64,000 nucleotides of DNA, from UHGV virus genome UHGV-0209617, one strand, 5' to 3'. This DNA comes from a virus. Positions 9,289-64,000 of this stretch are shown here, one piece after another (the first letter of the stretch is position 1; each line of letters starts with the position of its first letter). The notes beneath the pieces are model-generated. The model was not told where the DNA came from, did no database searches, and saw nothing but the letters and a program-made list of their open reading frames with translations. Position numbers and translations under genes: made by a program.

Positions 9289-9830
9289 GAAGCAGATGAT
9301 ATTGGTGTTAGTTGGTTCCAATGGCTCTGGAAAAAGTACTATTACCAAATTCTTTGATGTTGTTGGCGAATATACTAATGCTGATGATATTGTAGCAGCC
9401 ACTGGAATGGATAATCTTGCTGCAGCACGAATGGCTGATGAAAAATGTATTCTGCTATAAAAGAAAAACGGGATTTTACCTTTGAAACGGTACTATCTTC
9501 AGAGTATAAGTTTGATATATTAAATAAGGCTAAAGCAGAGGGTATTTTATTAAGTGTGTATTTGTATTGACCGTGAATCCCTACATAAATGTAGCTAGAG
9601 TGCAGATGCGTGTAGCTAATGGTGGTCATTTTGTGGAAAAAGATAAGATTTTATCAAGATACTATAAATCATTGACAAATATAAAGAAACTGTTAGAAAT
9701 ATGTGATATTATGCATGTTTATGATAATACCGTTACCCCAACGCGTATCATACGAAAGCATAAGGATGATATTTCTACTTTTGCTAGTGAAATATGGAGC
9801 GAAGAGCAGATTCTAAAACTTATGTATTAA
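9278..9830 (+). pseudogene. Zeta-toxin-like P-loop kinase, disrupted by two frameshifts
   Basis: Walker A VLVGSNGSGKST in frame 2 (ORF 9257-9460); middle segment EKRDFTFETVLSSEYKFDILNKAKAEG only in frame 1; C-terminal RVANGGHFVEKDKILSRYYKSL in frame 0 (ORF 9567-9830); together about 190 aa. Confidence 0.5.
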
Positions 9831-9872
9831 GATGGTTTATGTGTTTGTATTTGTGTAAAAATAAGTGAGGAT

Positions 9873-10142
9873 ATGATTTATCCATTTATGACATTGGAAG
9901 ATGATACAGAAATTACTAATTCTGAAATGCAGGCAAATGGTGAGGTAAAGGTGTATGTTGAAACACCAGATGAAAAGGATTGTTTCCATAGTATGATATG
10001 TTATCTTCCTGATTATCGTGTTGAAAAGGTAGAGGGGTATTCAGAAGAAGTGGAAAAGTATCTTGATTTTATTCGCAAGGCTGCGAATCTTATCCTTGAA
10101 TTTTCTCAGGAAGGTGGATTTAACCATGCCAAAGCTGTTTAA
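9873..10142 (+). CDS. Hypothetical small acidic protein
   Basis: 89 aa ORF, no motif recognised. Confidence 0.3.
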   Translation: MIYPFMTLEDDTEITNSEMQANGEVKVYVETPDEKDCFHSMICYLPDYRVEKVEGYSEEVEKYLDFIRKAANLILEFSQEGGFNHAKAV

Positions 10143-10470
10143 GATTGGTTGCCTCATATTCCAGATACATTAAGAAACATTATGCGTATTTTTAGCAATG
10201 GGGCAGAATAGGGCATAACGGGGCATTTTAGAGCATTTCAGGAAAGGAAAATGGCATGAATAAGATTTTGTTTATCTGCCACGGCAGCGTATAAGGATAG
10301 AGTCGATAAACCGCATGGCTACGGGACTTTTGCAACGGTTAAATGATATTCATATACTGAAAGCATACCGTTTATGCTGGGTCTTGTATATTCTATTGTG
10401 AAACGGTTACATTGAATTATTAAACGATACATATACATTAACGATTTAATCGTTAAATAATACCTTTGAG

Positions 10471-10496
10471 ACTCCCGGCTGTGCCTGGGAGTTTTT
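10471..10496 (+). terminator. Intrinsic terminator
   Basis: Hairpin ACTCCCGG..CCTGGGAGT followed by TTTTT. Confidence 0.5.
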
Positions 10497-10565
10497 CAAT
10501 ATAGGAGAAGGCGAATTTACTTCATAGGAAATGTTCTTATAGCTGTTGCCGTTGTACTATTGACT

Positions 10566-10574
10566 TGCTATAAT
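10566..10574 (+). promoter_or_regulatory. Extended -10 element (TGcTATAAT) upstream of Sel1/DUF6273-like gene
   Basis: TGCTATAAT at 10566-10574; only a weak -35 (TTGCCG) about 19 nt upstream. Confidence 0.3.
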
Positions 10575-10622
10575 TTAATAAATGACAATATTAATTTAAT
10601 GAAGATACGGAGATTTGAGCAT

Positions 10623-11441
10623 ATGGAAAAGAATCTTGATGAGGCTGTTAAATGGTTGCGTAAGGCAGCAGAGCTTGGGCATAAGGATGCAATGGTAAAG
10701 CTGGGCGAGCTACTCAGTGGTACAGAGGAGCCATTGACAAAACTATTGGAAAAATCATATATGGAAGGCTATGCAGATGGCAAAAATGGCAAGGCTAATA
10801 AATATTTCAAGGAAGCATATATTAAATCTACTATGGATAGAGCAGGTTTTGTTAATGTTAAGGTTGGAGATATAATCACATTTGGCAATTATTGGCAGGA
10901 TAAAGATAAGTCAGCTGGTAAGCAGCCAGTAGAGTGGCAGGTGCTTGATGTCAAGGATGGCAAGGCATTAGTTATTAGTAAATATGGTTTAATAAATCAT
11001 AAATATAATAAAGAATGGACGGATGTTACATGGGAAACATGTACCTTGAGAAAATGGCTGAATGATACCTTTATTAAGGATATTTTCTCCGCAGAGGAAA
11101 TGAAGGCTGTTATGTTATCAGATGTTAGTGCAGATAAAAATCCTAATTATAACACAAATCAGGGAAATGACACTAAGGATAAATTGTTCCTGCTGAGTAT
11201 AAAGGAAGTGGAGCAATATTTTGTTAGTGATGAAAAAAGACTGTGTAAGCCAACAGAATATGCAGTTAACAACGGAGCTTATGAGAATAACCGTGGGCAT
11301 AGTTGGTGGTGGCTACGCTCTGCTGGTGGCTATAGTAGCGATGCGGCGTATGTGGTCAGTTATGGCTGCGTCTACTACAGTGGCCGTAGTGTGTTCAGCG
11401 ACGATGGTTCTGTGCGCCCAGCTTTTTGGCTAAATCTTTAG
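10623..11441 (+). CDS. Sel1-like repeat plus DUF6273-like C-terminal domain protein
   Basis: ATG 10623 preceded by GGAG; N-terminus AVKWLRKAAELGHKDAMVKLGELL is Sel1/TPR-like; C-terminus WWWLRSAGGYSSDAAYVVSYGCVYYSGRSVFSDDGSVRPAFWL resembles DUF6273. Confidence 0.5.
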   Translation: MEKNLDEAVKWLRKAAELGHKDAMVKLGELLSGTEEPLTKLLEKSYMEGYADGKNGKANKYFKEAYIKSTMDRAGFVNVKVGDIITFGNYWQDKDKSAGKQPVEWQVLDVKDGKALVISKYGLINHKYNKEWTDVTWETCTLRKWLNDTFIKDIFSAEEMKAVMLSDVSADKNPNYNTNQGNDTKDKLFLLSIKEVEQYFVSDEKRLCKPTEYAVNNGAYENNRGHSWWWLRSAGGYSSDAAYVVSYGCVYYSGRSVFSDDGSVRPAFWLNL

Positions 11442-12350
11442 TCTAAAATCTTCAAATCTATGAATACGATAAGTGAAAAGTAGAAAAATAAAACAGGTAA
11501 TTTACCTGCGAAGCAGGGGTGAAATTTTTTAGGAGTATAGGCTGTGAAAAAAAGGTTAGCGAAACTTTTGTAAGCAGATTGCAGAATTTAAGTTTATCAG
11601 CCATAGAAAATCTGTATAGAGCCAATGATATATTTGTGCAGCGTGGCAATTTGAGTGCCTTGGAACTGACAGGCACTTTTAATGATAAATAGTAATGTTA
11701 AATAGCTGTATTATAAAGACAGCTAGAAACAATTTTTCAGCGGGGTAACATACTCAATAGGAAGCAAGAGTATGTTGCTCCGCTGATTTTTTAGTTTAGG
11801 TTGAGTATGTAGAACTGCTATTGGCAGGGGTGGGTATGTAGGGACAATGTGGTTCTGAAATAGTGAACATATCGAAGCTGAAAGGTACGTGGATATTGAG
11901 GTTAGGTAGATATGTTCAGTGCGAGCAGGTTGAATAGATATGAAAAGAAAATGCCCCAGACCGTGGTATTCCACTTCCTACAATAATTCAGTATGGCAGT
12001 GCCGTAACCGCTATTCAGCCGTGAAATGCAAGACCATGAATATCTATGACAAGCTGCTGTTTATGTCCTGCACGATGTGGCAAAGGACATACGGACAGCA
12101 ATAGTGGAATTCGCAGCAGATGTGGTCAGTGCTGACAGGCTGGCAGCCATTGAACGCTACATAGAGAACTTTGAAAGCATGAGTGCCTGGAAGATGCTTT
12201 CCAATGCAGATGACCTGTAATTCGTGATGAACATGGTTCTGGTCAAAACGGATAGGCGCATTGAGGTGATATGGTTGGACGGTGGTGTGGATGGATATGA
12301 AATTCCGAGGTATACACCGAAGGGGGGATAGAATGATTAGGTGTCTTTTT
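11442..12350. other. About 0.9 kb with no convincing gene; probable decayed coding remnants
   Basis: Only short, frame-switching ORFs; one 52-codon stretch (..VLHDVAKDIRTAIVEFAADVVSADRLAAIERYIENFESMSAWKML) looks protein-like but lacks a start. Confidence 0.3.
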
Positions 12351-12382
12351 AGCATTGTAAAAGTAATTACATTTACAATGCT
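12351..12382. repeat. 32 bp near-perfect palindrome, candidate operator
   Basis: AGCATTGTAAAAGTAATTACATTTACAATGCT has 11 bp perfect arms around a palindromic core; TTGTAAT and GTAATTACA recur at 12403-12425, overlapping the predicted -35. Confidence 0.7.
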
Positions 12383-12414
12383 AAAAAGATGTAGAAAATA
12401 TTTTGTAATAGGGA

Positions 12415-12443
12415 TTGTAATTACAGCTTAAATATGCTAAAAT
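12415..12443 (+). promoter_or_regulatory. Predicted sigma-A promoter of the RM operon
   Basis: -35 TTGTAA (12415-12420), 17 nt spacer, extended -10 TGcTAAAAT (12435-12443). Confidence 0.5.
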
Positions 12444-12688
12444 ATAAGATGAAAGACTATATGGAAATGGAGGAACTACAGTTGAGCGAAATGAAAAGAA
12501 AAATGCCTATGGAACATTTGAATATTGGTGAGTTCAACCGTGGGCAATCTTCAAAACTAATCCGTAACTTGGTGGAAAAAGATAATGCTGCATTTATACA
12601 AAAAAATGGGAAGCCAATAGCCGTTGTTATCTCCTATGAACGATACGAGAGACTGCTTGAGTCTGGCATTGATATCAATGAGTTCTGA
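12434..12688 (+). CDS. Phd/YefM-like small protein (antitoxin fold), putative regulator; start codon uncertain
   Basis: IGEFNRGQSSKLIRNLVEKDNAAFIQKNGKPIAVVISYERYERLLE matches the Phd/YefM pattern; no toxin gene follows; the listed ATG at 12434 overlaps the predicted -10, so the real start is probably TTG 12482 (GGAGG 8 nt upstream) or ATG 12491. Confidence 0.55.
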   Translation: MLKYKMKDYMEMEELQLSEMKRKMPMEHLNIGEFNRGQSSKLIRNLVEKDNAAFIQKNGKPIAVVISYERYERLLESGIDINEF

Positions 12689-12720
12689 GTATTCAAAACA
12701 TGATTAAGGAGGTAACGGAG

Positions 12721-14355
12721 ATGGTTGCGAAAAATTATGGTGTTGTTTACACACCGAATAGACTGGCTGAGTTCGCAGCAGAACTTTTATATAGAGAGGC
12801 AGCAGAAACTAATACAGAAATAAAGTCGGTATTGGATCCTGCGTGTGGCGAATGCGCATTGCTATGTGCTGCAAAGAAATATTTGAATGGTAATGTGAAA
12901 TATTTGGGAATTGATGTCGATAAAGAAGCAATAATGAATGTTGAGGATGATTTTGAAATTCTTTATAATGATTCAATTCTTCCGCGAAATGTAAAAAAAC
13001 AGACGGCAGAATATTGGAAGAGCAAGATGCCAGTAATATCTGCTATAATTGCAAATCCACCGTGGAGTTCCGAAAAAATATATGTGCGAGAAGAATTGCA
13101 GAGTGCCGGTTTCTCGTTGACCACAGGACAATATGATAGCTTTGTGCTATTTATTGAGTTGGCATATAATCTGCTTGATGATGGAGGATACTTTTCGTTT
13201 ATTATCCCCGATTCGTTATTTGATGCACAAAACGAAAAACTAAGAAGATTTTTGACTGAAAAGATGCAAATCAAAGTGATTGCCAGACTTGGAGAGAAGA
13301 TTTTTGAAGAAGTGAATAGAGCAACTACTGTTATTGTTTGCAGAAAAGAAAAGCCAGTCAAAGATTCTGTCACCCACTGTTTCAGACTTACTACGGAAGA
13401 AAGAAGAAAGTTTTTGAATTCGAATCAGAGTTTGTTAAACTTTTACAACGAAGATGTGCATGATGTGTTGCAGGGGCGATTTGCTGAAAACGCTGCCTGT
13501 AACTTTGACGTTGATACGCGCACTGATGAAGAGGCATTGTTGGCTAAAATTAAGAAGCAGTCTATAAGTTGGGAGGATATATTCATTTTTGGTCGAGGTG
13601 TTGAGATATCCAAAACAGGAAAGGTCGTATTTTGTCCTTCGTGTGGTTATGCCCAAGGGTATAAAAAATCACAAATGGCTGAAGGAAAAAAAGAATGTAC
13701 GAACTGTGGCAGTGAGATATCGGTTACTACGGCAAGTGTTCAAAATGTTATTTCACAAAGTCAAACGCCACAGACTGTTCAGATATATGTTGGAGAGAAT
13801 GTTCGGAGATATGGAATAACAGGAGAATGCTATATCAAACCCAACATTCCCGGAATCAATTATAAAAATCGTGCGATGTACAACCCACCAAAACTGTTGG
13901 TGAGAAAGACTGGACTTGGAATATATGCATCGATTGATTATACGGGAAGCATGACAAGTCAGGCTGTATATATTTTGAAATTTAAAAACAGTCAACATAA
14001 GGCTCCGTTGGAATATTATCTGGCATTGCTTAACTCACGAGTGGTCTACTATTTTTATTTGAAAGTATATGGAGAAAATGAATGGAAGTCCCATCCGTAC
14101 TTTACGAAACAGATTATTTATTCTCTGCCTATTAGAGAATATGAGGATAGTGAGTTAGATAAACAGATCATTAAAGTGGCATCGGAATTGGCGCATAAAT
14201 ATGAATATGTCAAGGATGTTCAGCTTGAGAAGTTGGTAATGAAAAAGTATGGTCTGTCAGAGACCGAAAGCAATATGGTTTATGGTGAGATGAATCGTCT
14301 GCCTGACTTGAGTGCGATTAACAATATGAAAGTTGAGGTGGAAGCGAATGTATAG
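12721..14355 (+). CDS. N6-adenine DNA methyltransferase, gamma class (Eco57I-like), with TaqI-like C-terminal target-recognition region and internal C4 zinc ribbon
   Basis: ATG 12721 with AAGGAGG 8 nt upstream; motifs GVVYTP, LDPACGECALL (AdoMet binding), IIANPPWSS (NPPW catalytic); internal CPSCGY..CTNCG. Confidence 0.85.
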   Translation: MVAKNYGVVYTPNRLAEFAAELLYREAAETNTEIKSVLDPACGECALLCAAKKYLNGNVKYLGIDVDKEAIMNVEDDFEILYNDSILPRNVKKQTAEYWKSKMPVISAIIANPPWSSEKIYVREELQSAGFSLTTGQYDSFVLFIELAYNLLDDGGYFSFIIPDSLFDAQNEKLRRFLTEKMQIKVIARLGEKIFEEVNRATTVIVCRKEKPVKDSVTHCFRLTTEERRKFLNSNQSLLNFYNEDVHDVLQGRFAENAACNFDVDTRTDEEALLAKIKKQSISWEDIFIFGRGVEISKTGKVVFCPSCGYAQGYKKSQMAEGKKECTNCGSEISVTTASVQNVISQSQTPQTVQIYVGENVRRYGITGECYIKPNIPGINYKNRAMYNPPKLLVRKTGLGIYASIDYTGSMTSQAVYILKFKNSQHKAPLEYYLALLNSRVVYYFYLKVYGENEWKSHPYFTKQIIYSLPIREYEDSELDKQIIKVASELAHKYEYVKDVQLEKLVMKKYGLSETESNMVYGEMNRLPDLSAINNMKVEVEANV

Positions 14356-15406
14356 ATATATAGGAAACAAATCAAAGCTGACTCCATACATTCTTGATAG
14401 GGTGGAACAGCTTATTGGAAAAACAGGAATTGTTGCTGACATTATGGCTGGAACAGGAACTGTGGCATTAGAATTGAGAAAAGCAGGTTATTCGGTTATC
14501 GCATCTGATGTAATGACCTATTCGTACCATCATTTGATGGTTAATCTTTGCTTAGATTCAGCTCCTTCTTTTTCTGGGCTTGTGAATCATGGAGCAATAG
14601 GCAAGAATGAGGTGGATGCATATGGTGCAATCCTGACTTATTTAAATTGCATTGAACCCAAAGAAGGTTTTTTCTTCAAGGAATTTTCTCCGGGTGGAAC
14701 ACCGCAGAATGGTTGCGACCCGAGAAAATATTTCACTACGGAAAATGCAAAGAAAATTGATGCGATTAGAGAAAAAATAAATGAGTGGATTGATAATGGA
14801 TATGTGAGCAAAGCTGAAGAATCGCTTTTAAAACATACTCTTATTATGGCAGTAAACGAGGTTGCCAATATATCTGGAACTTACGGATATTTTTTGGCTG
14901 ATTTCAAAAAGAATGCCAATGCACAGATTGATTTAAAACCTGTGGAATTTTGTTCTGTGAATTCAACTGGTCACATGGTAAAATTGGGATTTGCTGAAAA
15001 TTTAGCTGCAACAATTACAGTTGATTTGTGCTACATCGACCCTCCGTATATGAAGAGACAGTATGCTGCGAATTATCATATTCTGGAAACCATTGCACGA
15101 GGAGATTTCCCTGATGCTGTTGGTAAAAGTGGCTTGCGTGACTGGTGGGAGCAGCACTCTAAATTGTGTACCAAAACACGAGGATTACAATCGTTTGAAA
15201 AGATATTAGGTGATATGCATTGCCCGAAATTTCTGATTAGCTACAGTGAGGATGGTTTGTTTACGCTGGGGCAATTAGAAGAATGTTTTAGCAAGTTTGG
15301 AACTGTTGACGTTCAAGAAATTGATTACAATCGATTTAGAAGCAATGATAGCAAGTTGCCTAAAAAACTGAAGGAATATTTGATTTCTATAGAAAGGCAG
15401 GTATAA
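14348..15406 (+). CDS. DNA adenine methyltransferase, Dam-like (D12 class)
   Basis: ATG 14348 with AGGTGG upstream, overlapping the preceding stop by 8 nt; motifs RYIGNKSKL and DPPY. Confidence 0.8.
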   Translation: MYRYIGNKSKLTPYILDRVEQLIGKTGIVADIMAGTGTVALELRKAGYSVIASDVMTYSYHHLMVNLCLDSAPSFSGLVNHGAIGKNEVDAYGAILTYLNCIEPKEGFFFKEFSPGGTPQNGCDPRKYFTTENAKKIDAIREKINEWIDNGYVSKAEESLLKHTLIMAVNEVANISGTYGYFLADFKKNANAQIDLKPVEFCSVNSTGHMVKLGFAENLAATITVDLCYIDPPYMKRQYAANYHILETIARGDFPDAVGKSGLRDWWEQHSKLCTKTRGLQSFEKILGDMHCPKFLISYSEDGLFTLGQLEECFSKFGTVDVQEIDYNRFRSNDSKLPKKLKEYLISIERQV

Positions 15407-15410
15407 GTGA

Positions 15411-17081
15411 ATGGAGTGCATTGAAAGAATATTTTACAGAAAGATTAATCCTTCTGATTTCAAAAAGTTGTATGATATTGACAAACCAGAAGGTGGCGGT
15501 GGTCAGACATACTTGGAAGCCGCTGGTATTTCAAATGAAAAAATCGTTGATTTCCTTTCCTATGCGGAGGTTACAAACAGTCCTTTGCCAGATGAAACAA
15601 GGTCTGTTTATACATTCAATGCCTATGTTTTGGGCGATTCAAAGGGTAAATGTTCGTTTGTAGAATTTGCACCTCGCAAAGGAAGAAATAACTATCGTAT
15701 AAGCCGTCAGAACATGAAATATAAACATCCGGCATGGAGTTTGGATAATGGATTTCCCGAACCATCAAAAGGTGATGATGGCGAATACACATCTGCAGGC
15801 GATTTTGTGGGAATCATTGATAATCTTGTTATTCTTATCATAAGAACTACAAATCGGCGTTATTATGCAGGTTTTGTAAATATAGCGACAATGCCAGAGA
15901 ACTGGCCACACAATATTGGCTTAGAGGGCATTTTTAGTGGTGAACGCAGAGATGTACTAAAAATGGATGCGTATAAACTACAGTTTGTTAATGATGCCTG
16001 TAATCCATTCGGTGATTATGTCCCAACAATCGAAGAATGTAATCGAGCGACTACTGGTTGCAATGTGCTTTTGTACGGAGTTCCCGGAGCAGGAAAGAGT
16101 TGGACAATTGAACACGAATATTGTGCCGATGAAGGGTGTATGGAGCGATTGGTTTTCCATCCGGATTATATGTATTCGGATTTCGTTGGACAAATTTTGC
16201 CTGTAGTAAGGGACGATGACAAGGTTCGTTATGAGTTTACGCCGGGTCCGTTTACCAAATTATTAAAAAAAGCATATTGGAATACAGAACAGTCTTTTTA
16301 CCTTATAATAGAAGAAATAAATCGTGGTAATGCACCAGCGATATTCGGTGAAATATTTCAGCTTTTGGATAGAAAAGATGAAGACGAAATAGATGAAAAT
16401 AGGGAGATTCTCTACAAAAAAGGCACAAGTGAGTATGGAATAACAAATGCCAATATTGCACGAATCGTTTATGGCGATGAAAACCATAAGGTTCGAATTC
16501 CTGCAAATATGTCTATTTTGGGTACAATGAATACTTCTGACCAAAATGTTTTTACATTAGACACAGCATTTCAGAGAAGATGGATTATGAGAATGATTCC
16601 GAATTCATTTGATAACCATAAGTTCGCAGACAAGAAGATTTTGGATACTGATATTTCCTGGAGACAGTTCTGTGAAGCAATTAATGAGGAAATTTTGCGT
16701 AGAAACAACATCACATCTTCTGAGGATAAGCGACTTGGGGCATATTTTATCTCGGCTTCGGATTTGGAGATGAAACCAATCACAGACGGGATGAGCGAAA
16801 AAGAAAAAATCCAAGTGGAGCATAGCAACAGCAGATTTGCAGAAAAAGTATTGAAATATTTATGGGATGATGCTTTCAAATTTTCCCATCAAGATACATT
16901 TAACACAAGACAGTTTGGTAGTCTTGAAAAAGTTATCGAAGGCTTTATGAATCCTGCCAAGCCTAAAAATGAGCGTTTTCGTGTATTCAATGAGAACCTT
17001 CGTAAAATGATTTTGGATGGAGTAACAGCAGAATCAAACGAGGTTTCTGATGATGACAGCGAAGGCTCACAGGAATCTTAA
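15411..17081 (+). CDS. McrB-like GTPase subunit (LlaJI R1-like) with N-terminal DNA-recognition domain
   Basis: Walker A LLYGVPGAGKSW; McrB signature IIEEINRGNAPAIFGEIFQLLDR; TMNTSDQNVFTLDTAFQRRW; starts 4 nt after the second methyltransferase. Confidence 0.85.
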   Translation: MECIERIFYRKINPSDFKKLYDIDKPEGGGGQTYLEAAGISNEKIVDFLSYAEVTNSPLPDETRSVYTFNAYVLGDSKGKCSFVEFAPRKGRNNYRISRQNMKYKHPAWSLDNGFPEPSKGDDGEYTSAGDFVGIIDNLVILIIRTTNRRYYAGFVNIATMPENWPHNIGLEGIFSGERRDVLKMDAYKLQFVNDACNPFGDYVPTIEECNRATTGCNVLLYGVPGAGKSWTIEHEYCADEGCMERLVFHPDYMYSDFVGQILPVVRDDDKVRYEFTPGPFTKLLKKAYWNTEQSFYLIIEEINRGNAPAIFGEIFQLLDRKDEDEIDENREILYKKGTSEYGITNANIARIVYGDENHKVRIPANMSILGTMNTSDQNVFTLDTAFQRRWIMRMIPNSFDNHKFADKKILDTDISWRQFCEAINEEILRRNNITSSEDKRLGAYFISASDLEMKPITDGMSEKEKIQVEHSNSRFAEKVLKYLWDDAFKFSHQDTFNTRQFGSLEKVIEGFMNPAKPKNERFRVFNENLRKMILDGVTAESNEVSDDDSEGSQES

Positions 17082-17097
17082 AGCGAGGTGAGCGACA

Positions 17098-18378
17098 TTG
17101 GATTTAGGCTTAAACTTAAAAGTTAAATGTCATGTGAATAAAAATGGTGATGGCGATAGGTTTGTCGGGATTAAGGCTGATGCTAATCAAGCAATGGTCT
17201 ATTTTCCAATGGGGTATCGCCTGCCAGACAATGAAGAAGATATTAGGGATGATATTCTAAAATTGATTTCTGTATTAGCTGAGTTTACGGATTCAAAAGA
17301 CAAGGTATTGGCTATGCAGAAATTTGAAGCACCACAGTCTGTGAATTTTCCAATCAATGCCTATATGAATATTATCCGATACTATTTGGAACAACGTTCA
17401 TATTACACAGAAAAGGATCCTATTCTAAAGACGAGTGACAGAGGAAAAATCGACTTTGCAGCATCTTTGCGTAGAAATGTTAGCTTTTTTCAAGAAGATG
17501 GAACTCCGTTTTTTGATAAATATACAGTAAAAGGGTCAACTCCTAATGATAAAAATTTAATAACTATGATTCACAAATACTGTGTGCATGAAAGTTTTGC
17601 TCAGATGGGTTGGCTGTTTATGCCGGATGTCCCACAAGATCCACATATTGAACGAAACATTCCGCTTTTCCTCAGTGTACTGAAGAAAAAATTGGCAGTC
17701 ACGCATCTTGAAAAGGATATTCTGCTATTTGAAGCAATGATTTCTATGCTGGAATATTTGGATGAGAAAAGTGACGATAAACAATACTATTTTGGAACAG
17801 ATAGATTTGAATATGTGTGGGAAAAACTGATAGATGCAGTGTTTGGCATAAAAGAAAAGAATGATTATTTTCCACGAACCTCTTGGAAACTAAACTATGG
17901 TGACCAACGAAGAAATTATGCATTAGAGCCGGACACCATAATGCTTTGTAATGGAAAAATCTATGTCATTGATGCAAAGTATTATAGATACGGTGTAACC
18001 GGTACACCTTCGCATTTGCCGGAATCATCATCTATCAACAAGCAGATTACATATGGTGAGTACATATATAATCATAAGAAATTTAAGGATGTATATGGTG
18101 ATGATGTTCCTGTGTATAACGCATTCCTTATGCCGTATAACAAACAGGATAATCCATTTCATATCAATGAGTATTTCGCCAATATTGGTGAGGCTGATAG
18201 TGACTGGAAATATGGCAATCATAATTATGAACGGGTGCAAGGAATTGTAGTTGATATTCGTTTCTTGATGAACAATTACTATGGTTCGCACAAGAGTAAA
18301 ATTATTAAGATGGCGAAGCTCATCGAGGAAGCCCTGCAGGAAAATGCAGATACGCTTCCAGAAGAAAAGACTGAATAA
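17098..18378 (+). CDS. McrC-like PD-(D/E)xK nuclease subunit (LlaJI R2-like)
   Basis: TTG start with GAGGTG 7 nt upstream, 16 nt after the McrB-like gene; IYVIDAKYY matches the McrC-type nuclease motif. Confidence 0.7.
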   Translation: MDLGLNLKVKCHVNKNGDGDRFVGIKADANQAMVYFPMGYRLPDNEEDIRDDILKLISVLAEFTDSKDKVLAMQKFEAPQSVNFPINAYMNIIRYYLEQRSYYTEKDPILKTSDRGKIDFAASLRRNVSFFQEDGTPFFDKYTVKGSTPNDKNLITMIHKYCVHESFAQMGWLFMPDVPQDPHIERNIPLFLSVLKKKLAVTHLEKDILLFEAMISMLEYLDEKSDDKQYYFGTDRFEYVWEKLIDAVFGIKEKNDYFPRTSWKLNYGDQRRNYALEPDTIMLCNGKIYVIDAKYYRYGVTGTPSHLPESSSINKQITYGEYIYNHKKFKDVYGDDVPVYNAFLMPYNKQDNPFHINEYFANIGEADSDWKYGNHNYERVQGIVVDIRFLMNNYYGSHKSKIIKMAKLIEEALQENADTLPEEKTE

Positions 18379-18418
18379 AAAATCCGCAAGCAGTGATTAT
18401 GCTGTTTGCGGATTTTTT
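18377..18418. terminator. Bidirectional intrinsic terminator between convergent genes
   Basis: AAAAAATCCGCAAGCAG..CTGTTTGCGGATTTTTT, about 15 bp stem with one mismatch, A-run and T-run on either side. Confidence 0.6.
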
Positions 18419-19601
18419 ATTTGCCCTTTTGAACTTTGATGCGATGGGAACGTTGATTATTTGCGTTTCTACAGTTACTGCAACAATATTTATTTCTACT
18501 ATTGGATGTCTTTACTAAGAAATATTTATGGCAAGAAGGATTGGCACACTTTCTATATATTTCAGATCCGGGTTTCATGTAGAAAATAGAAAAATATAAT
18601 GCAGAAAGCAATGATGGTGCCTTCCACGACGGTTCCAGTGAATTGGGACTGTAGAAAGGTTTTATACTTCTGGTATTATGATTTATTTCCCCACTTAAAA
18701 CGAGTCGTGCGATAAGAGTAGCAGCCTCTTTTAATGGACTGTTAAATTTGCTGAAATCTGGACTACTATAGTATTCAATGCCGCCCTCGAAAGTTACAGC
18801 TTTTATTACACCAACAGAATGCATATAGTGAAACAGGAATTCAACCATTAGTCGGAGCTTCTTGGATTGAATATTGTTATTCTTGTAAGCAATAGTAACC
18901 TGGCGATACAGCGTATCATTAATTCCAGGATAATCGTATGTAAATGTTTCTCCGTTTGAAATATCATCATATTCATCAGCATTTAATTCATATGAAGGAG
19001 CATAAATCATGTCTTTTACGGTAATAGATTCTGTTTCAGAGGATTGCTGTAGTGAATCGATAGAGGCTTGATTTCTGATGCTATCATGAAATGGATGCCG
19101 ATAGGTTGAATAAGTAATTCGTGCAGTGCCATTAAGCGTAACTTGTGTCCCAAGAAGCAAATACAAAGTTAAATGTAGAATCTGTTCATAATCAAGTGAT
19201 GGTTTTTCCACTGCGGCCATAAGGAGAACTGTAGCCTTTATTCGATTCAAGACTTCTACAAGCGCTACTATATCAATTTCCGTTCCTTCGGGCGAAATAG
19301 GAAGTAGATAACCATGTTCCTCGAAAAAACCAAGGACCTTTTTTACATTGGTTGCCGGAAGCGATATCAGAGAACCGAGAACATTTTTATTTTGAAGTGA
19401 ACCGTGTGGAGTCGTTAAACATAAACCTCGGCTTCCGCTAAAGGCATAATTTATAATTTCATCATTCACGGGATAGACTGTTAATATTTTATGCGCCTGC
19501 CCGTCCGTCTTTAAGACTTCTTCTATTCTAAATGTACATTTTTTGCAACTCAAAGAAAAATAATCGTTGCTAAGATTGAAAAAATTGTCTAACTCAGTCA
19601 T
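18417..19601 (-). CDS. Hypothetical protein with C-terminal CGNR-type zinc finger
   Basis: 394 aa; C-terminus CANPSCHKYFLVKTSNSRNKYCCSNCRNANNQRSHR fits the CGNR zinc-finger pattern; N-terminal 330 aa unrecognised. Confidence 0.5.
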   Translation of the reverse strand: MTELDNFFNLSNDYFSLSCKKCTFRIEEVLKTDGQAHKILTVYPVNDEIINYAFSGSRGLCLTTPHGSLQNKNVLGSLISLPATNVKKVLGFFEEHGYLLPISPEGTEIDIVALVEVLNRIKATVLLMAAVEKPSLDYEQILHLTLYLLLGTQVTLNGTARITYSTYRHPFHDSIRNQASIDSLQQSSETESITVKDMIYAPSYELNADEYDDISNGETFTYDYPGINDTLYRQVTIAYKNNNIQSKKLRLMVEFLFHYMHSVGVIKAVTFEGGIEYYSSPDFSKFNSPLKEAATLIARLVLSGEINHNTRSIKPFYSPNSLEPSWKAPSLLSALYFSIFYMKPGSEIYRKCANPSCHKYFLVKTSNSRNKYCCSNCRNANNQRSHRIKVQKGK

Positions 19602-19639
19602 AAAAAACTACTCCATATTTCCTTGCCCCTCGTAGAAGG

Positions 19640-19800
19640 GTCTTTTTTTATGTCGAAAAGTAAGTGATTACATAAGTAATAATGTAATTATAACGCTTAC
19701 TATTGCTTGTTTCAAGCTAGTATAGTAATGAAATACACAGAAAGTAAGTGATTATATCAGAAATTTACTTACTATACTGAAATTCTTATACTTAAAGACA
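19640..19800. repeat. AT-rich repeat cluster at cargo/prophage boundary
   Basis: AGTAAGTGATTA at 19663 and 19745; CTTACTAT at 19707 and 19770; short inverted matches between them. Confidence 0.4.
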
Positions 19801-20035
19801 GTGAAGGACAACCAAACTTTATATACAGCGGAGGTGTTTTTCACATCCCTGTTTCAATGTTCATCGCCTGATCAGCGATGCCCAGAGCGGAGAAACGGAC
19901 ACAAGTAAATATCAGTCAACCCACTGGGACGGTTGGCCAGCTAAGAAATGAGGATTTCATTCTTATGGCCAATTATTATGGGAAGTTCAGTGTGGGTCCT
20001 CATTTCGGTTTTCAGACCGAAGGAGGGTCTACACG

Positions 20036-20545
20036 ATGGACAAATTTGAAAATCTACAGACAAGCAACGAGAAGCAGTATTACATTCCTTTGGAAGTAAC
20101 CGCAGAAACTATCAGAGATTTTGGCATCAACCCTAAAGATGTGGTATGGACGAGAATCGGGAACAAGCCTAAAAAGGTTGTTATGATTCCCGTAACCGAG
20201 GAGCAGTACAAAACATTTATGCGTCCTCTGTGGCGTGAGGACAAGCGTCAGCAAAGACAGGAGCCGATGGCATCGCTGGATAAGATGTACGAAAAAACCG
20301 AGTACGAAGCGGCTGATACCGACTCTGACCTTGAAGCGAATATTATGAAGAAAATGCTGATTGATGAGCTTCACAAGGCACTGGATGAACTGGAAGAAAT
20401 CGACCGCACCATTATGAAGATGTACAGCAATAACCATAGCGAAGCCGAAATCGGACAGACTATCGGTATGAGCCAGAAGGGTGTTAATAAACGTAAGCAC
20501 AAGGTGCTGCTGAAACTTAACACCAGATTGAAAGACTTCAGATAA
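20036..20545 (+). CDS. Sigma-70 family (region 4 HTH) regulator
   Basis: AAGGAGGG 9 nt upstream; C-terminal SEAEIGQTIGMSQKGVNKRKHKVLLKL is a sigma-70 region 4-type HTH. Confidence 0.6.
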   Translation: MDKFENLQTSNEKQYYIPLEVTAETIRDFGINPKDVVWTRIGNKPKKVVMIPVTEEQYKTFMRPLWREDKRQQRQEPMASLDKMYEKTEYEAADTDSDLEANIMKKMLIDELHKALDELEEIDRTIMKMYSNNHSEAEIGQTIGMSQKGVNKRKHKVLLKLNTRLKDFR

Positions 20546-20619
20546 GGGATAATACCCTGCCTGCTCTGCCACAGCATTATCCGGTGGAGCAGGTTTTTAT
20601 ATTGTTTTCAAAAAATAGT

Positions 20620-20864: not shown

Positions 20865-21227
20865 ATGGGAAAGATGAACGAGTTGTCTATGCTCACAGAG
20901 GAACTTCGCAAATGTGGTGAAACGCTTATCAGCATTTCAGAGGAATTGGCGGGTATGTTCAGCGGCTCTGCGGAAGAAAAGCAGCCTGTCAAAAAGAGTG
21001 CTGCTAAGAATAAAGCCGCCGAGGCGACGAAGCCAGAAGCGCCGAAGAAAAAGGCTCTCACGCTGGAAGATGTCCGTGCCGTGTGTGCAGACAAATCCCG
21101 CAGTGGTTTTACGGCAGAAGTCAAAGCAATCCTGAATAAGCACGGTGTGGAAAAGCTGTCGGAGGTTAATCCAGCAGAATATAAGGCACTGCTTGCTGAA
21201 GTGGAGGTGCTGGGAAATGCCGGATAA
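20865..21227 (+). CDS. Hypothetical phage protein (Lys/Ala-rich)
   Basis: 120 aa; strong GGAGG upstream; first gene of the replication module. Confidence 0.45.
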   Translation: MGKMNELSMLTEELRKCGETLISISEELAGMFSGSAEEKQPVKKSAAKNKAAEATKPEAPKKKALTLEDVRAVCADKSRSGFTAEVKAILNKHGVEKLSEVNPAEYKALLAEVEVLGNAG

Positions 21228-22389
21228 ACAGAAGGTGAATTGCACCGCAGGTGCAAGAGAGGCTGGCCTGGGCCACGCAGTTTTATCAGCATCATCCAGT
21301 CACCGCTGGCTTGCCTGCCCTCCTTCGGCTTTGCTTTGTGCGAAAGTCGGAGATACCATAAGCGAGTTTGCTATGCAGGGTACCGATGCCCACAGCCTTT
21401 GCGAACATAAGGTGAAAACAGCATTGGGGCAGCAGTCGAAAGACCCTACAGAGAATTTAACGTTCTTTGACGAGGAGATGGCAGACTGTTCCGATATGTA
21501 TGCTCAGTATGTGATGGAGCAGCTTGGGGCGGCAAAGGAAAAGTGCAAAGACCCAATCGTTCTGATTGAACAGCGTCTTGATTTTTCCAAGTGGGTACCG
21601 CAGGGGTTCGGCACCGGGGACTGTGTCATTGTAGCTGATGAAACGCTGACAATCATTGACATGAAATACGGAGTCGGGATTCTTGTTTACGCAGAGAAAA
21701 ATCCGCAAATGATGTGTTACGCATTGGGAGCTTTGGCGCTGTTTGATGGGATTTACGATATAACACAGGTATCAATGACAATCTTCCAGCCGCGAAGAGA
21801 CAATGTCAGCACATACACCATTTCTAAAGTAGAACTTCTGAAATGGGCGGATGAGGTGCTTGCTCCGACCGCACAGCTTGCAGCCAAGGGAGAAGGAGAA
21901 TACAAGGCCGGAGACCACTGCCAGTTCTGCAAGGTCAAAGCCAAGTGTCGCAAAAGAGCCGAATACAACCTGGAACTTGCCCGTTATGATTTTGAAATGC
22001 CTTCCACCCTTGAAGACGATGAGATTGAGGCCATTTTAGAAAAAGCAGACGCGCTGGTATCCTGGGCGGGCGATGTCAAGGAATATGCATTGCAGCAGGC
22101 AGTCAGCGGCAAGCAGTGGAAAGACTGGAAGATTGTCGAAGGACGCTCCAACAGGAAGTATGTAAATGAAACAGCCGTGGCAGATACGGTCAAGGATGCA
22201 GGTTATGACCCGTTTGAACATAAGGTTCTGGGGATTACCGCAATGACCAAACTACTCGGCAAGGCAAAATTTGAAGAATTGCTCTCCGGGTTTATTGAAA
22301 AAACACAGGGCAAGCCAACATTGGTACCTATGTCGGACAAACGTCCGGCAATGAATACAGCAGCTAACGATTTTAAGGAGGACAACTAA
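21217..22389 (+). CDS. PD-(D/E)xK nuclease family protein, DUF2800-like
   Basis: ATG 21217 (MPDKQKVN); N-terminal SASSSHRWLACPPSAL; sits upstream of DUF2815-like and polymerase A genes as in related phage replication modules. Confidence 0.65.
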   Translation: MPDKQKVNCTAGAREAGLGHAVLSASSSHRWLACPPSALLCAKVGDTISEFAMQGTDAHSLCEHKVKTALGQQSKDPTENLTFFDEEMADCSDMYAQYVMEQLGAAKEKCKDPIVLIEQRLDFSKWVPQGFGTGDCVIVADETLTIIDMKYGVGILVYAEKNPQMMCYALGALALFDGIYDITQVSMTIFQPRRDNVSTYTISKVELLKWADEVLAPTAQLAAKGEGEYKAGDHCQFCKVKAKCRKRAEYNLELARYDFEMPSTLEDDEIEAILEKADALVSWAGDVKEYALQQAVSGKQWKDWKIVEGRSNRKYVNETAVADTVKDAGYDPFEHKVLGITAMTKLLGKAKFEELLSGFIEKTQGKPTLVPMSDKRPAMNTAANDFKEDN

Positions 22390-60140: not shown

Positions 60141-60285
60141 CAGTTATTGGTCATATACATAACGAGTAGCAAACGGCGCTAATAAACGTGCGTATATAAA
60201 TTATAAAATAAGCACGAATGTTAAAATTATCTTTACAACTGTGCTTATTTAATTTATAATATAAGCACGGTTGGAGGTGATTGCC

Positions 60286-60867
60286 ATGAATGACATTGAA
60301 AAGCTTGTTGATGAGTCAGGAATGATTACAACTAGAGATATAGTGAAAAATAATCAGTCAAAAGTAGAATTTTACAATTACCTGAGAAAAAATGATTTTG
60401 AACAAGTATCGCGTGGTATATATGCTTCTAAGGATGCGTGGGTAGACCCATTATTGATTGCGCATATGAGATGTCCTAAAGCGGTGATCTCTCATGATGT
60501 GGCACTTCATTATTATGGCTTGGTTGATAGAGAGCCTTCAGCTCCAACGCTTACTATTTATTCTGGATACAACACAAGCAGGTTAAAAGAAGCAGGGTAC
60601 AAGGTGTTTTTCGTGAAGAAGGAATACCTTGATGCTGGCAAAGAAGAGGTTGTAAATTTTGATGGCAACATCATTCCTATGTATAACCTTGAAAGAACGA
60701 TGTGTGACCTTGTCAGAAACAGAAGCAGCTTTGAGATTCAAGATTTCAATGCAGCTATAAAAGCGTATGCCAGAAAAAAGGAAAAGAATCTTACAAGGCT
60801 ATTTGAATATGCGAAAATGCTTAGGGTGGAAAAATTGATGCGGTCATATATGGAGGTGCTTTTGTAA
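60286..60867 (+). CDS. abiEi: AbiEi-like antitoxin/transcriptional regulator
   Basis: ATG 60286 with GGAGGTGA 5 nt upstream; ~190 aa directly upstream of a nucleotidyltransferase-fold toxin gene; called from size, position and fold resemblance. Confidence 0.65.
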   Translation: MNDIEKLVDESGMITTRDIVKNNQSKVEFYNYLRKNDFEQVSRGIYASKDAWVDPLLIAHMRCPKAVISHDVALHYYGLVDREPSAPTLTIYSGYNTSRLKEAGYKVFFVKKEYLDAGKEEVVNFDGNIIPMYNLERTMCDLVRNRSSFEIQDFNAAIKAYARKKEKNLTRLFEYAKMLRVEKLMRSYMEVLL

Positions 60868-61949: not shown

Positions 61950-62327
61950 ATGACAGAAGTAGAGAAGAAAAGAATAAAGGAGCTTCATTATCAGGGGCTG
62001 GGATATCGGAAGATTGCTGCCGAACTTGGCATGTCCCCTAATACTGTGAAATATGTAACCAAGAATCTGGTAGCTACGGATAATCATACCTGCAGGAACT
62101 GCGGCATCAAAGTTTTACAGACAGCAGGACGCAAGGAGAAGAAGTTCTGTTCAGATAAATGCCGTATGGATTGGTGGAACAGCCATCTCGATACTGTTAA
62201 TCGCAAGGGATATAAGACCTTTACCTGTAAATGCTGCAGTAAGGAATTCATGGCTTATGCCAGGACAGGCAGGAAATACTGCAGCCGGGAATGTTATTTC
62301 AAGGCTAGATATGGAGGTGCAAGATGA
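61950..62327 (+). CDS. HTH (sigma region 4-like) plus Cys-rich zinc-finger regulator of recombination module
   Basis: N-terminal KRIKELHYQGLGYRKIAAELGMSPNTVKY; C-terminal cysteine pairs CRNCG, CSDKC, CKCC, CSREC. Confidence 0.5.
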   Translation: MTEVEKKRIKELHYQGLGYRKIAAELGMSPNTVKYVTKNLVATDNHTCRNCGIKVLQTAGRKEKKFCSDKCRMDWWNSHLDTVNRKGYKTFTCKCCSKEFMAYARTGRKYCSRECYFKARYGGAR

Positions 62328-62515
62328 GTACGCCGTTGAATGAAAAGTACACACTTAGTATAAAGGAATCCGCCAAGTATTTCGGTATTGGCATGAAAAG
62401 GCTGCGGCGGCTTGCAGAAGAACATATGGACACCTTTGCTATCCGCTGTGGCAACAAGTATCTCATCATCCGCACTGAGTTTGAAGCCTTTCTGAAGGAT
62501 TCAGAAGAAATATAG
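62324..62515 (+). CDS. xis: Excisionase-like HTH protein
   Basis: 63 aa; LSIKESAKYFGIGMKRLRRLAEE is a MerR/Xis-type HTH; directly upstream of the integrase. Confidence 0.5.
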   Translation: MSTPLNEKYTLSIKESAKYFGIGMKRLRRLAEEHMDTFAIRCGNKYLIIRTEFEAFLKDSEEI

Positions 62516-62583
62516 CTTATATGCCAAATAGTAGTTGAATAATATCGCAAACAGAGTGATATATAGTGTCGGAGGTGATGAGC

Positions 62584-62808
62584 ATGCAGAAATCAGATCT
62601 TGGGGAACGGGAATACCTTAGCAAGAAGTATACTGCCGTCTTCTTCGGACTCAGTCCCAGGCGGCTTGAGCGATTCCTCAAAGCAGATGACTATGATTTT
62701 GTTGTGTATTATAAGAAAAGAACACTGATATTAAGGGAGGCCTTCAACAGATATCTCTGGAGGAATCCTGATGTAAGGGAGATGTTGAAACGTGGCAAGA
62801 CGAGGTGA
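62584..62808 (+). CDS. Second excisionase-like HTH protein
   Basis: ATG 62584 with GGAGG 8 nt upstream; YTAVFFGLSPRRLERFLK; 3' end overlaps the integrase start. Confidence 0.45.
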   Translation: MQKSDLGEREYLSKKYTAVFFGLSPRRLERFLKADDYDFVVYYKKRTLILREAFNRYLWRNPDVREMLKRGKTR

Positions 62809-64000
62809 AGTAAGAAGGGATTCAAGGAACAGGCTGTTAAGGATAGGTGAATCCCAGCGTAAAGATGGCAAGTACATGTTCAAATACCATGTGGATGGCA
62901 GACCGTATTTCGTCACCAGCTGGAGACTGCTGCCTTCAGATAGGCAGCCAAAAGGTACAAAGCCTACCCTTTCACTGAGGGAATTGGAAAAGAAGGTAGG
63001 AAGGGAAATCGACCTGCAGATGAGCCTTGAACTCAGGAACTGCACGGTTAAGGATTTGGTTGAGCGGTATTTGGCTACCAGGATTAATGCAAAGCCGAAT
63101 ACCAAGATGGGGTATAATACTGTAAAGAATGTACTGGAAAGTGAGCCCTTTTATCATAGGAAGATAAAAACAATCAAGGTATCTGATGCAAAGATATTCC
63201 TCATCAAGTTGCAGGAAAATGGCAGGAAGGCCAGCACGGTGAAATGCATCAGAGGGGTTCTCCGCCCGGCTTTTCAGATGGCTGTAGATGATGATATGCT
63301 GGTCAAGAATCCTTTTGCTTTCGAGCTGGCAGGTGTCCTGGTAAATGACTCAGTCACAAGGGAGGCTGTCAGCAGGAGGGAAATGAAAAAGTTCTTGCAG
63401 TTTGTCAGGAACGATGATTGCTACTGCAAATACTATGAGGCAGTACATATACTGTTCCATACGGGAATGCGAATATCTGAATTCTGCGGTCTGACGATAA
63501 ATGACCTTGATATGGAGAACAGAATCATAGATATAAACCATCAGCTGGTGCGTGTGGGAATGAAGCTGATAATACAGACCACAAAGACCAACGCAGGCAC
63601 CAGAAGGATTCCGATGTCTGAGGATGTATATGAAATGTTCAAGAGCATATTGGCTAACAGGCCAACAGGCATAGATGAGAAAGCCGTTGATGGGTATAAG
63701 GGGTTCCTCTACCTTGATAATGCCGGACTGCCACTTGTGGCAATGCACTGGTCAAACAGGTTCAGGCATATGGTCGGGCGCTACAATGACATTTACAAAG
63801 AACAGATGCCTAAAATCACTCCTCACGTCTGCCGCCATACCTACTGCAGCAACATGGCAAAATCGGGAATGCATCCAAAGATCCTGCAGTACCTTATGGG
63901 GCATTCGGACATTGGTGTGACGCTCAATACATATACCCACTTAGGGCTTGAGGACGCCCAGGGCGAGATGGACAGACTGAAGGATGCCCAACAGGAGATT
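62792..64000 (+). CDS. int: Tyrosine recombinase/integrase, Tn916-family-like (3' end beyond window)
   Basis: Open frame from GTG 62792 to the window edge; N-terminus RRDSRNRLLRIGESQRKDGKYMFKY resembles Tn916 Int as recalled; catalytic region HVCRHTY and LMGHSDIGVTLNTYTHL. Confidence 0.8.
   Translation, partial: MARRGEVRRDSRNRLLRIGESQRKDGKYMFKYHVDGRPYFVTSWRLLPSDRQPKGTKPTLSLRELEKKVGREIDLQMSLELRNCTVKDLVERYLATRINAKPNTKMGYNTVKNVLESEPFYHRKIKTIKVSDAKIFLIKLQENGRKASTVKCIRGVLRPAFQMAVDDDMLVKNPFAFELAGVLVNDSVTREAVSRREMKKFLQFVRNDDCYCKYYEAVHILFHTGMRISEFCGLTINDLDMENRIIDINHQLVRVGMKLIIQTTKTNAGTRRIPMSEDVYEMFKSILANRPTGIDEKAVDGYKGFLYLDNAGLPLVAMHWSNRFRHMVGRYNDIYKEQMPKITPHVCRHTYCSNMAKSGMHPKILQYLMGHSDIGVTLNTYTHLGLEDAQGEMDRLKDAQQEI

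Follow-up and report, generated by a model that had tools for sequence, protein, structure and literature searches.

A probable divergent promoter-operator region between a CGNR zinc-finger gene of a LlaJI-type cassette and the early operon of an integrated phage

Introduction

The cI-PRM/OR-PR-cro region of lambda is the divergent promoter-operator (immunity or switch) region of a temperate phage. Here we analyse a spacer with a partly similar layout, positions 19640-19880 of a 64,000-nucleotide stretch of the UHGV virus genome UHGV-0209617 (hereafter the window), which separates the gene for a 394-aa CGNR zinc-finger protein from the early operon of an integrated phage. As in lambda-type switches, the candidate regulator is transcribed away from the early operon, the predicted promoters lie back to back in a short AT-rich spacer, and repeated, part-palindromic sites overlie -10 and -35 elements, with a second site an integral number of helical turns away. 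Unlike in lambda-type switches, the candidate regulator is an ABATE-like/CGNR zinc-finger protein rather than a helix-turn-helix repressor. A further difference is that gene and sites belong to a restriction-modification (R-M) cassette that is missing from 45 of 55 related viral contigs, sampled for a closely related DUF2800 gene with enough upstream sequence; the spacer is therefore not the core immunity region of this lineage.

In type II R-M systems, the controller (C) protein is a small helix-turn-helix protein whose gene precedes that of the endonuclease and is co-transcribed with it. Like a C protein and its C-box, the locus pairs a predicted DNA-binding protein within an R-M cassette with repeated palindromic sites before that protein's own gene, and an arrangement of this kind would permit autoregulation and timing. 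Membership of the C-protein family was rejected for the CGNR protein, whose fold, size and orientation are all wrong: it is a 394-aa zinc-finger protein, its gene is convergent with that of the R2 subunit with a terminator between them, and no motif lies before the R-M operon.

The cassette itself resembles LlaJI of the Lactococcus plasmid pNP40, a four-gene, 6.2-kb operon that is functional without a CGNR gene (PMC1459862). Both systems combine two methyltransferases, a McrB-like AAA protein (R1) and an RE_LlaJI protein (R2) in one operon, whereas here and in ~75 of 80 sampled genomes the set is joined by a fifth gene, the convergent CGNR gene, which has a conserved motif of its own upstream. 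A comparable set, orf12-orf15, occurs in Streptococcus phage phi1207.3 (S. pyogenes) and comprises a SpyI methylase, an AAA R1, a LlaJI-like R2 and the CGNR zinc-finger protein Orf15 (PMC4260502, AY657002.1). In both loci the order is methylase, R1, R2 and then a CGNR gene that converges on R2 and diverges from the gene beyond it, an arrangement already visible in the phi1207.3 annotation, and the spacer upstream of the phi1207.3 CGNR gene also carries GTAAT/ATTAC-type repeats. They differ in that the CGNR proteins are 28% identical, the phi1207.3 methylase is of the C5 type, that phage uses serine recombinases, and its repeat motif is AGTAAT where that of the window is AGTAAG. The published annotation of Orf15 makes no comment on its spacer (PMC4260502). 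The CGNR zinc-finger fold has been proposed to be a DNA-binding transcription regulator (PMC2954205), and the limited literature that we found characterises no DNA target for the family.

A clustered and conserved motif in the spacer

The spacer is AT-rich (26-32% GC) and is flanked by the minus-strand 394-aa open reading frame (ORF) of the CGNR protein and the plus-strand 169-aa ORF of a sigma-70 region-4-like protein (Table 1). The original prediction had described direct repeats and short inverted matches in this DNA, and a repeat finder and shuffling both bear it out. The sequence and the repeat finder agree on an exact 14-nt direct repeat, AAAGTAAGTGATTA, at 19657-19670 and 19741-19754, 84 bp apart. 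The 12-mer AGTAAGTGATTA is present twice (starts 19659 and 19743), as is CTTACTAT (19696-19703 and 19768-19775). Several inverted matches occur, one of which pairs 19719-19734 with 19763-19778 (16 nt, 88% complementary), and a perfect 7-nt inverted pair is formed by AGTAAGT at 19743-19749 and ACTTACT at 19767-19773, with a 17-nt spacer. A single hexamer, AGTAAG/CTTACT, underlies all of these repeat words, with copies at 19659, 19696, 19743 and 19768.

Of 2000 dinucleotide-preserving shuffles of 19640-19880, 6 produced an exact direct repeat of 12 nt or more and none produced one of 14 nt or more. Four copies of the hexamer were likewise seen in 0 of 2000 shuffles, the shuffle mean being 0.25. 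The whole window holds 26 copies, equivalent to 0.1 per 241 nt, and no second 241-nt stretch contains four; the spacer cluster is unique. The repeat cluster is real and not a chance occurrence.

Conservation was assessed by aligning the spacer at 13 loci at which the CGNR protein shares 37-100% identity with that of the window (37-83% for the 12 relatives), the relatives coming from Enterococcus, Longibaculum, Dorea, BVAB1 and Selenomonas genome records. Two motif blocks, proximal and distal to the CGNR gene, stand out from the stretches between them (Table 1), and the ACTTAC of the distal block is invariant in 13 of 13 sequences. Of 67 non-redundant CGNR upstream regions, 29 contain AGTAAG, where 5 would be expected, and 24 contain TAGTAAG, where 2 would be. 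An AGTAAG-N19-CTTACT inverted repeat recurs in many genomes between about -172 and -142 relative to the start codon of the CGNR gene, and direct-repeat spacings in several loci are ~42, 84 and 124 bp, near-integral numbers of helical turns.

The motif was found nowhere else in the 64-kb window, including upstream of the methyltransferase genes. Among the sampled viral contigs, it is present upstream of the DUF2800 gene in none of the 45 that lack a CGNR gene, many of which do have the sigma-like gene. It is present in four of the 10 contigs with a CGNR gene, namely the four with close homologues, and all 10 also carry R2. Locus L027 retains the motif though its neighbouring gene is neither sigma-like nor DUF2800. 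The motif thus travels with the CGNR gene and not with the early genes, and a like spacer is found in dozens of genomes, always adjoining a CGNR gene.

Predicted promoters and their overlap with the motif

A consensus scan, backed by conservation of the hexamers in the 12 relatives, predicts two outward-facing promoters in the spacer (Table 1). Both -10 hexamers and the leftward -35 are conserved, and A2 and T6 of the rightward -10, as read from the alignment, are kept in every row. An inverted motif copy, CTTACT at 19696-19701, falls within the spacer of the leftward promoter, and the right arm of the distal inverted repeat reaches into the rightward -35. The repeated sites overlap promoter elements and are conserved above background. 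By conservation, the spacer thus appears to hold two back-to-back promoters and at least four copies of the AGTAAGT/ACTTACT motif. An operator array for early regulation had been one of the readings first offered for this DNA; its core stands, in that conserved repeats lie over predicted divergent promoters, but the array is linked to the CGNR/LlaJI cassette rather than to the early genes as such.

Between the CGNR ribosome-binding site and the repeats lies a hairpin followed by a T-run. A terminator scan of 19300-20200 returned none, and this hairpin is recognisable only against the relatives, where its counterparts in L023, L036, L027, L040 and L048 reach -9 to -15 kcal/mol with differing stem sequences. 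The hairpin is antisense to the CGNR leader and might shield the rightward promoter against transcription reading through from the R-M operon.

A CGNR gene paired with LlaJI-type restriction genes

Two methyltransferases, an AAA/McrB-like R1 and an RE_LlaJI R2 place the adjacent cassette, by predicted domain content, within the LlaJI-type definition, and the PADLOC REase_II and MTase_II models match it. The 394-aa protein itself matched nothing in Pfam, NCBIfam or PADLOC, and a PDB sequence search reached only E ~0.7; its CGNR domain assignment comes from homologues and a fold search. Genome contexts were collected from three diverged CGNR homologues (80%, 64% and 49% identity) and 80 species-representative genomes. 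The CGNR gene is convergent with LlaJI-type R2/R1 in nearly all of these contexts (loci L023-L114), and the pairing holds alike with N6-adenine and C5-cytosine methyltransferases. At 48 of the 67 non-redundant loci it diverges from a sigma-like ORF; several of the others are truncated contigs. From these contexts, the CGNR protein looks like an unrecognised fifth component of LlaJI-type cassettes.

A two-way promoter-operator region as the favoured explanation

We consider it highly probable that the spacer is a conserved promoter-operator region of the cassette. That it serves in two directions, facing the CGNR regulator gene on one side and the early operon on the other, inside the prophage, is a somewhat less secure reading but still the one that we favour as probable. 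The chances that the CGNR protein is what binds the motif copies appear about even. Such a region is an ordinary kind of element, and its regulator is modestly new.

In the mechanism that we propose, the motif copies would be operators bound by the adjacent CGNR protein, which would autoregulate its own promoter. The proximal group comprises direct copies at 19659 and 19673 and the inverted copy at 19696, which bracket the -10 and start of the CGNR promoter, a placement that would suit autorepression. Through the distal inverted repeat over the rightward -35, the CGNR protein could also gate the promoter feeding the early operon, from which transcription would start ~50 nt before the DUF2800 RNA leader. 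Set 84 bp (8 helical turns) apart, the two groups might cooperate, possibly by looping between phased sites.

Several points weigh against this reading. DNA binding by CGNR proteins is itself a prediction, and the operator sites and both promoters are predicted from consensus and conservation. The rightward promoter fits just 9 of 12 consensus positions, and the hairpin at 19625-19652 is weak in the window. The 84-bp repeat includes a -10-like sequence (TATAAT-CACTTAC / TGTAAT-CACTTAC), and a duplicated promoter core could therefore explain some of the repetition. The strict motif is missing from the six viral contigs whose CGNR homologues are distant (32-38% identity), and many distant genomes show just looser GTAA(G/T)-type repeats. 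Because the CGNR gene always co-occurs with R1 and R2, association cannot single out the CGNR protein as the binder.

Alternative explanations

A competing account, which we judge unlikely, is that the repeats are operators for another protein, either a repressor or activator that the phage encodes elsewhere (for instance the sigma-like protein or the product of the HTH/zinc-ribbon gene at 61950-62327) or a host factor, while the CGNR protein is otherwise employed in restriction. The distal block not only overlaps the rightward -35 but contains a -35-like TTTACT, the sigma-like gene is the divergent neighbour in 48 of the 67 loci, and DNA binding by the CGNR protein is only predicted. Yet the motif is absent upstream of the sigma-like/DUF2800 genes in all 45 related phages without a CGNR gene and is kept in L027 and L029, which have no sigma-like neighbour. 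It also occurs at one place in the 64-kb window and is therefore not a general phage promoter element.

There is only a slim chance that the motif is instead the recognition sequence of the LlaJI-type system, with methylation state or R1 binding setting expression. Precedent comes from pNP40, in which two LlaJI sites lie in the LlaJI promoter and were used as gel-shift probes (PMC1459862). The motif here is asymmetric and present in both orientations, and two adenine methyltransferases would fit an asymmetric site. Specificity would be expected to change along with the methyltransferases, however, and the motif is conserved in cassettes with a C5-cytosine methyltransferase (L027, L030), though AGTAAGTGAT is without cytosine on one strand. 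Moreover, the motif fronts the CGNR gene rather than the R-M operon, with none upstream of the methyltransferase genes, and the hexamer count in the window is near expectation.

We give very little credence to the view that the repeats are functionless, either chance low-complexity matches or a passive duplication scar at a module seam. AT-rich DNA is rich in short matches, two-copy families are often due to chance and a GC seam lies nearby, but the shuffle tests are contrary and the blocks are 75-88% identical across relatives against 33-35% for their flanks.

The original proposal that the spacer is attL or a set of arm-type sites for the Tn916-family integrase draws on an integrase with an arm-binding N-terminal domain and on AT-rich, repeat-rich DNA like Tn916 ends at a point where GC rises, but it is the least probable of these explanations, given that base-exact junctions lie elsewhere, no core lies near the spacer, its motifs are absent next to attL and attR, and like spacers occur in dozens of genomes, always beside a CGNR gene and also in phages with other recombinases, such as phi1207.3 with its serine recombinases.

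Prophage ends and integration site

The window is identical to ENA ERZ28638444 scaffold_39, and locus L010, identical to the window over a 12051-base overlap, extends it 8.3 kb rightward. The integrase does belong to the Tn916 family, as had been supposed, and a Tn916-Xis gene lies upstream of it (Table 1). In L010, a low-molecular-weight phosphatase (LMW-PTP) gene begins ~600 bp past the integrase end (64057) and is followed by ordinary host genes. A second locus, L019, was reached via P0001, the cluster representative of the LMW-PTP protein. Its LMW-PTP gene is 99% identical to that of L010 over 97% of the protein, with a different upstream region and first ten codons, and the two become identical at TGCCACGGCA. 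The window carries a displaced LMW-PTP 5' fragment; the corresponding L019 sequence (2039-2137) continues into an intact gene, whereas the fragment stops at TGCCACGGCA and is followed by unrelated DNA.

Lining up the junctions places attB (core at L019 2128-2137) at ...TTGTTTATC TGCCACGGCA ATATTTGCCG..., attL at ...TTGTTTATC TGCCACGGCA GCGTATAAGG... and attR at ...CTTTTCGTA TGCCACGGCA ATATTTGCCG..., and the three coincide exactly at TGCCACGGCA. The window, L003, L004 and L196 have differing left flanks, that of L004 being a third version of the LMW-PTP 5' end, and all are joined to GCGTATAAGG... at the same base directly after the core. The left arm of NatCom_9291, a related phage (Ca. Heliusvirales; host [Clostridium] innocuum), likewise opens with a 5' fragment of LMW-PTP and an identical TGCCACGGCA core. 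With junctions at 10277-10286 and 688 bp past the window, the element as delimited by sequence runs from window position 10287 to ~64687, about 54.4 kb, and the spacer is internal to it. The "left edge of the prophage" to which the spacer had been assigned in fact lies 9.4 kb further left, and the sigma-like gene at 20036 is not, as had been stated, the first gene of the element.

The integration point corresponds to codons 8-11 of the LMW-PTP gene, for which the element brings a replacement promoter and 5' end. The integrase-proximal arm (L010 12109-12748, window-equivalent 64058-64697) gives a diverged 5' end, in which MSKSILFVCHG... replaces MNKILFICHG.... The element shares with Tn916 an integrase and excisionase of the same family; unlike Tn916, it is site-specific at a 10-bp core inside a gene whose 5' end it replaces, and the spacer, 9.4 kb from the junction, has nothing in common with the integrase-proximal end.

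A repeat matching the spacer had been expected beyond the integrase, and none of its sequence recurs there. No copy of the core TGCCACGGCA was found in 19132-20566 with up to two mismatches allowed. Exact seeds of at least 10 nt between window 1-21000 and the 1 kb past the integrase gave only chance-level matches near the spacer and one meaningful match, TGCCACGGCA at 10277. Neither the 330 bp just inside attL nor the 650 bp just inside attR contains any of the spacer motifs. Since no matching repeat lies at the other end of the element, the attachment-site reading is refuted by the very outcome named at the outset as its refutation, and on these comparisons the spacer is almost certainly not an attachment site. 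Both sides of 19640-19880 are constant in every examined contig carrying the CGNR protein and are found together in many unrelated genomes; flank variation begins at 10286/10287.

The predicted attP sequence contains ...CTTTTCGTATGCCACGGCAGCGTATAAGG... and the predicted attB ...TTGTTTATCTGCCACGGCAATATTTGCCG.... The predicted attP junction GTATGCCACGGCAGCGTATAAGG had no match in IMG/VR or JGI metagenome contigs, an absence of data rather than counter-evidence, and the element's left end had none in IMG/VR.

A second, different element with its own Tn916-type integrase lies directly left of the LMW-PTP 5' fragment in L003 (reverse complement 1-520), L019 (1-2137) and L196 (516-900), alone in L019 and in tandem with the prophage in L003 and L196. 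A metagenome scan yielded just one additional tandem junction. The LMW-PTP locus seems to be an integration hot spot that can hold elements in tandem. In PV036421.1, the GenBank record of NatCom_9291 (L018 1-1436), ~1.4 kb of apparently non-phage DNA left of the TGCCACGGCA core is made up of the integrase of an adjacent element and the displaced 5' fragment of LMW-PTP. A tandem model in which the cassette is a separate island sharing the attachment site was rejected, there being no third core copy and no second integrase in 10287-19848.

Between the integrase and LMW-PTP genes, L010 12190-12530 (window-equivalent 64139-64479) holds an imperfect ~200-bp duplication with repeated TTCACCCC...GGGGTGAA hairpins, then tandem GTCTACTATTC GTCTACTATCC. 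The L019 element has a like layout with a co-varying hairpin sequence (TGCACCCCC...GGGGGGTGCA). Possibly, the integrase and Xis use these hairpins and tandem copies as arm-type or accessory sites.

DNA left of attL (1-10187) has 34.5% GC, against 43% in the right host flank. It contains, especially at 1069-2269, a TerL-nuclease fragment together with a portal ORF truncated to 163 aa (Pfam positions 2-107 of 321), and is probably what is left of another mobile element and not core host DNA.

Cargo arm, early operon and other features

The left arm of the element has 37% GC and the phage core 46%, and the arm adjoins the phage early genes in every examined contig carrying the CGNR protein. Similarity to NatCom_9291, which lacks the cassette, begins only at 19848. 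The AT-richness and the GC step at ~19800-19850 mark the seam of low-GC cassette and phage core, not a prophage end. The first gene inside attL (DUF6273 with Sel1, 10560-11441) sits in a variable patch: to the left of this gene, L002 carries in addition a DUF8245/Sel1 gene and two further ORFs, and L003 has a diverged partial duplicate of 10188-11925.

Rightward of the spacer, the early operon is ordered DUF2800 RNA, sigma-like gene, DUF2800, Enc34-type SSB and family-A DNA polymerase. The RNA motif, of which only 19849-19880 falls within the spacer as delimited, has the same placement relative to the CGNR gene in L023, L036 and L053. A small ORF at 19878-20099 (73 aa) was rejected as a gene because it coincides with the RNA match. 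A 59-aa coding sequence annotated at the corresponding place in NatCom_9291 also coincides with DUF2800 RNA and is probably not a gene.

Near the right end, the lysis genes are separated from the xis/int module by a low-GC (37%) island at 60271-61721, formed by an AbiEi/AbiEii toxin-antitoxin (abortive infection) pair. The 125-aa protein encoded upstream of xis at 61950-62327 has an N-terminal HTH_38 domain and two CxxC...(F/Y)CSxxC zinc-ribbon-like motifs that resemble the C-terminus of the CGNR protein. An 80-aa ORF at 62566-62808 gave no match on look-up, and its start codon is probably miscalled.

Table 1. Coordinates of features in and around the spacer (window positions unless stated; identities are means to the window in the 12 relatives)
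Feature	Position	Strand	Remarks
Displaced LMW-PTP 5' fragment	10188..10286	+	Promoter region, ATG 10238, codons for MNKILFICHG; 96% identical to L019 2039-2137
attL core TGCCACGGCA	10277..10286	+	10 bp; true left end of element; sole exact copy in window
Low-GC (37%) cargo arm	10287..19848	+	DUF6273 gene, PhdYeFM-like antitoxin, LlaJI-type R-M cassette, CGNR gene, spacer
LlaJI-type R-M operon	12700..18378	+	Pfam, PADLOC
N6-adenine methyltransferases (two)	12700-14355, 14333-15406	+	PF02384/PF07669/PF12950; PF02086
AAA_5 R1 subunit	15411-17081	+	PF07728
RE_LlaJI R2 subunit	17098-18378	+	PF09563
Bidirectional terminator-like hairpin	18379..18416	.	A-run, GC stem, T-run; separates the convergent genes for R2 and the CGNR protein; read from sequence
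CGNR zinc-finger protein, candidate regulator	18417..19601	-	394 aa; homologues and fold search
Terminator-like hairpin and T-run	19625..19652	+	-4.9 kcal/mol
Proximal motif block	19657..19680	+	AAAGTAAGTGATTA and degenerate copy ATAAGTAAT; just downstream of leftward -10, in CGNR 5' leader; 75% identity
Predicted leftward CGNR promoter	19687..19715	-	TTGAAA, 17 nt, TATAAT; 11/12 consensus positions
Leftward -10 TATAAT	19692-19687	-	88% identity
Leftward -35 TTGAAA	19715-19710	-	76% identity
Distal motif block	19741..19776	+	AGTAAGT, 17 nt, ACTTACT; best conserved spacer element; 84% identity
Predicted rightward promoter	19764..19792	+	TTTACT 19764-19769, 17 nt, TATACT; 9/12 consensus positions
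Rightward -10 TATACT	19787-19792	+	81% identity
Spacer stretches between blocks			33-35% identity
DUF2800 RNA motif, early-operon leader	19849..20002	+	Rfam RF02960; 81.8 bits vs gathering score 60.2; E 2e-14
Sigma-70 region-4-like protein	20036..20545	+	169 aa; first coding gene of rightward operon; Pfam, NCBIfam
DUF2800 gene	21145-22389		Pfam
Tn916-type excisionase (Xis)	62324..62515	+	PF09035, TIGR01764; upstream of integrase
Tn916-type tyrosine integrase	62792..64000, continues to window-equivalent 64057	+	PF02920 + PF00589; 421 aa in L010
attR core TGCCACGGCA	L010 12739-12748 = window-equivalent 64688-64697		688 bp past window, within intact LMW-PTP gene

Implications

These results move the prophage boundary by 9.4 kb and make the R-M cassette, the antitoxin-like gene and the DUF6273 gene phage cargo, carried by a phage that integrates into the LMW-PTP gene and repairs its 5' end. 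They establish the CGNR protein as a near-constant partner of LlaJI-type restriction genes across Bacillota and propose for it a defined, predicted operator motif and promoter pair. The literature searchable here holds no discussion of the spacer motif or of the breadth of the CGNR-LlaJI pairing.

A more far-reaching idea, which we put forward tentatively and regard as somewhat doubtful, is that a CGNR/ABATE-like protein acts as a fifth LlaJI component that binds AGTAAGT-N17-ACTTACT and takes over the DUF2800-RNA/sigma-like early-operon promoter in phi1207.3-like or Heliusvirales-like phages. This would make the system a mobile defence cassette with its own switch, in which restriction is coupled to early transcription. 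If the CGNR protein does control the rightward promoter, a defence cassette would be linked to the early transcription of a widespread gut-phage lineage.

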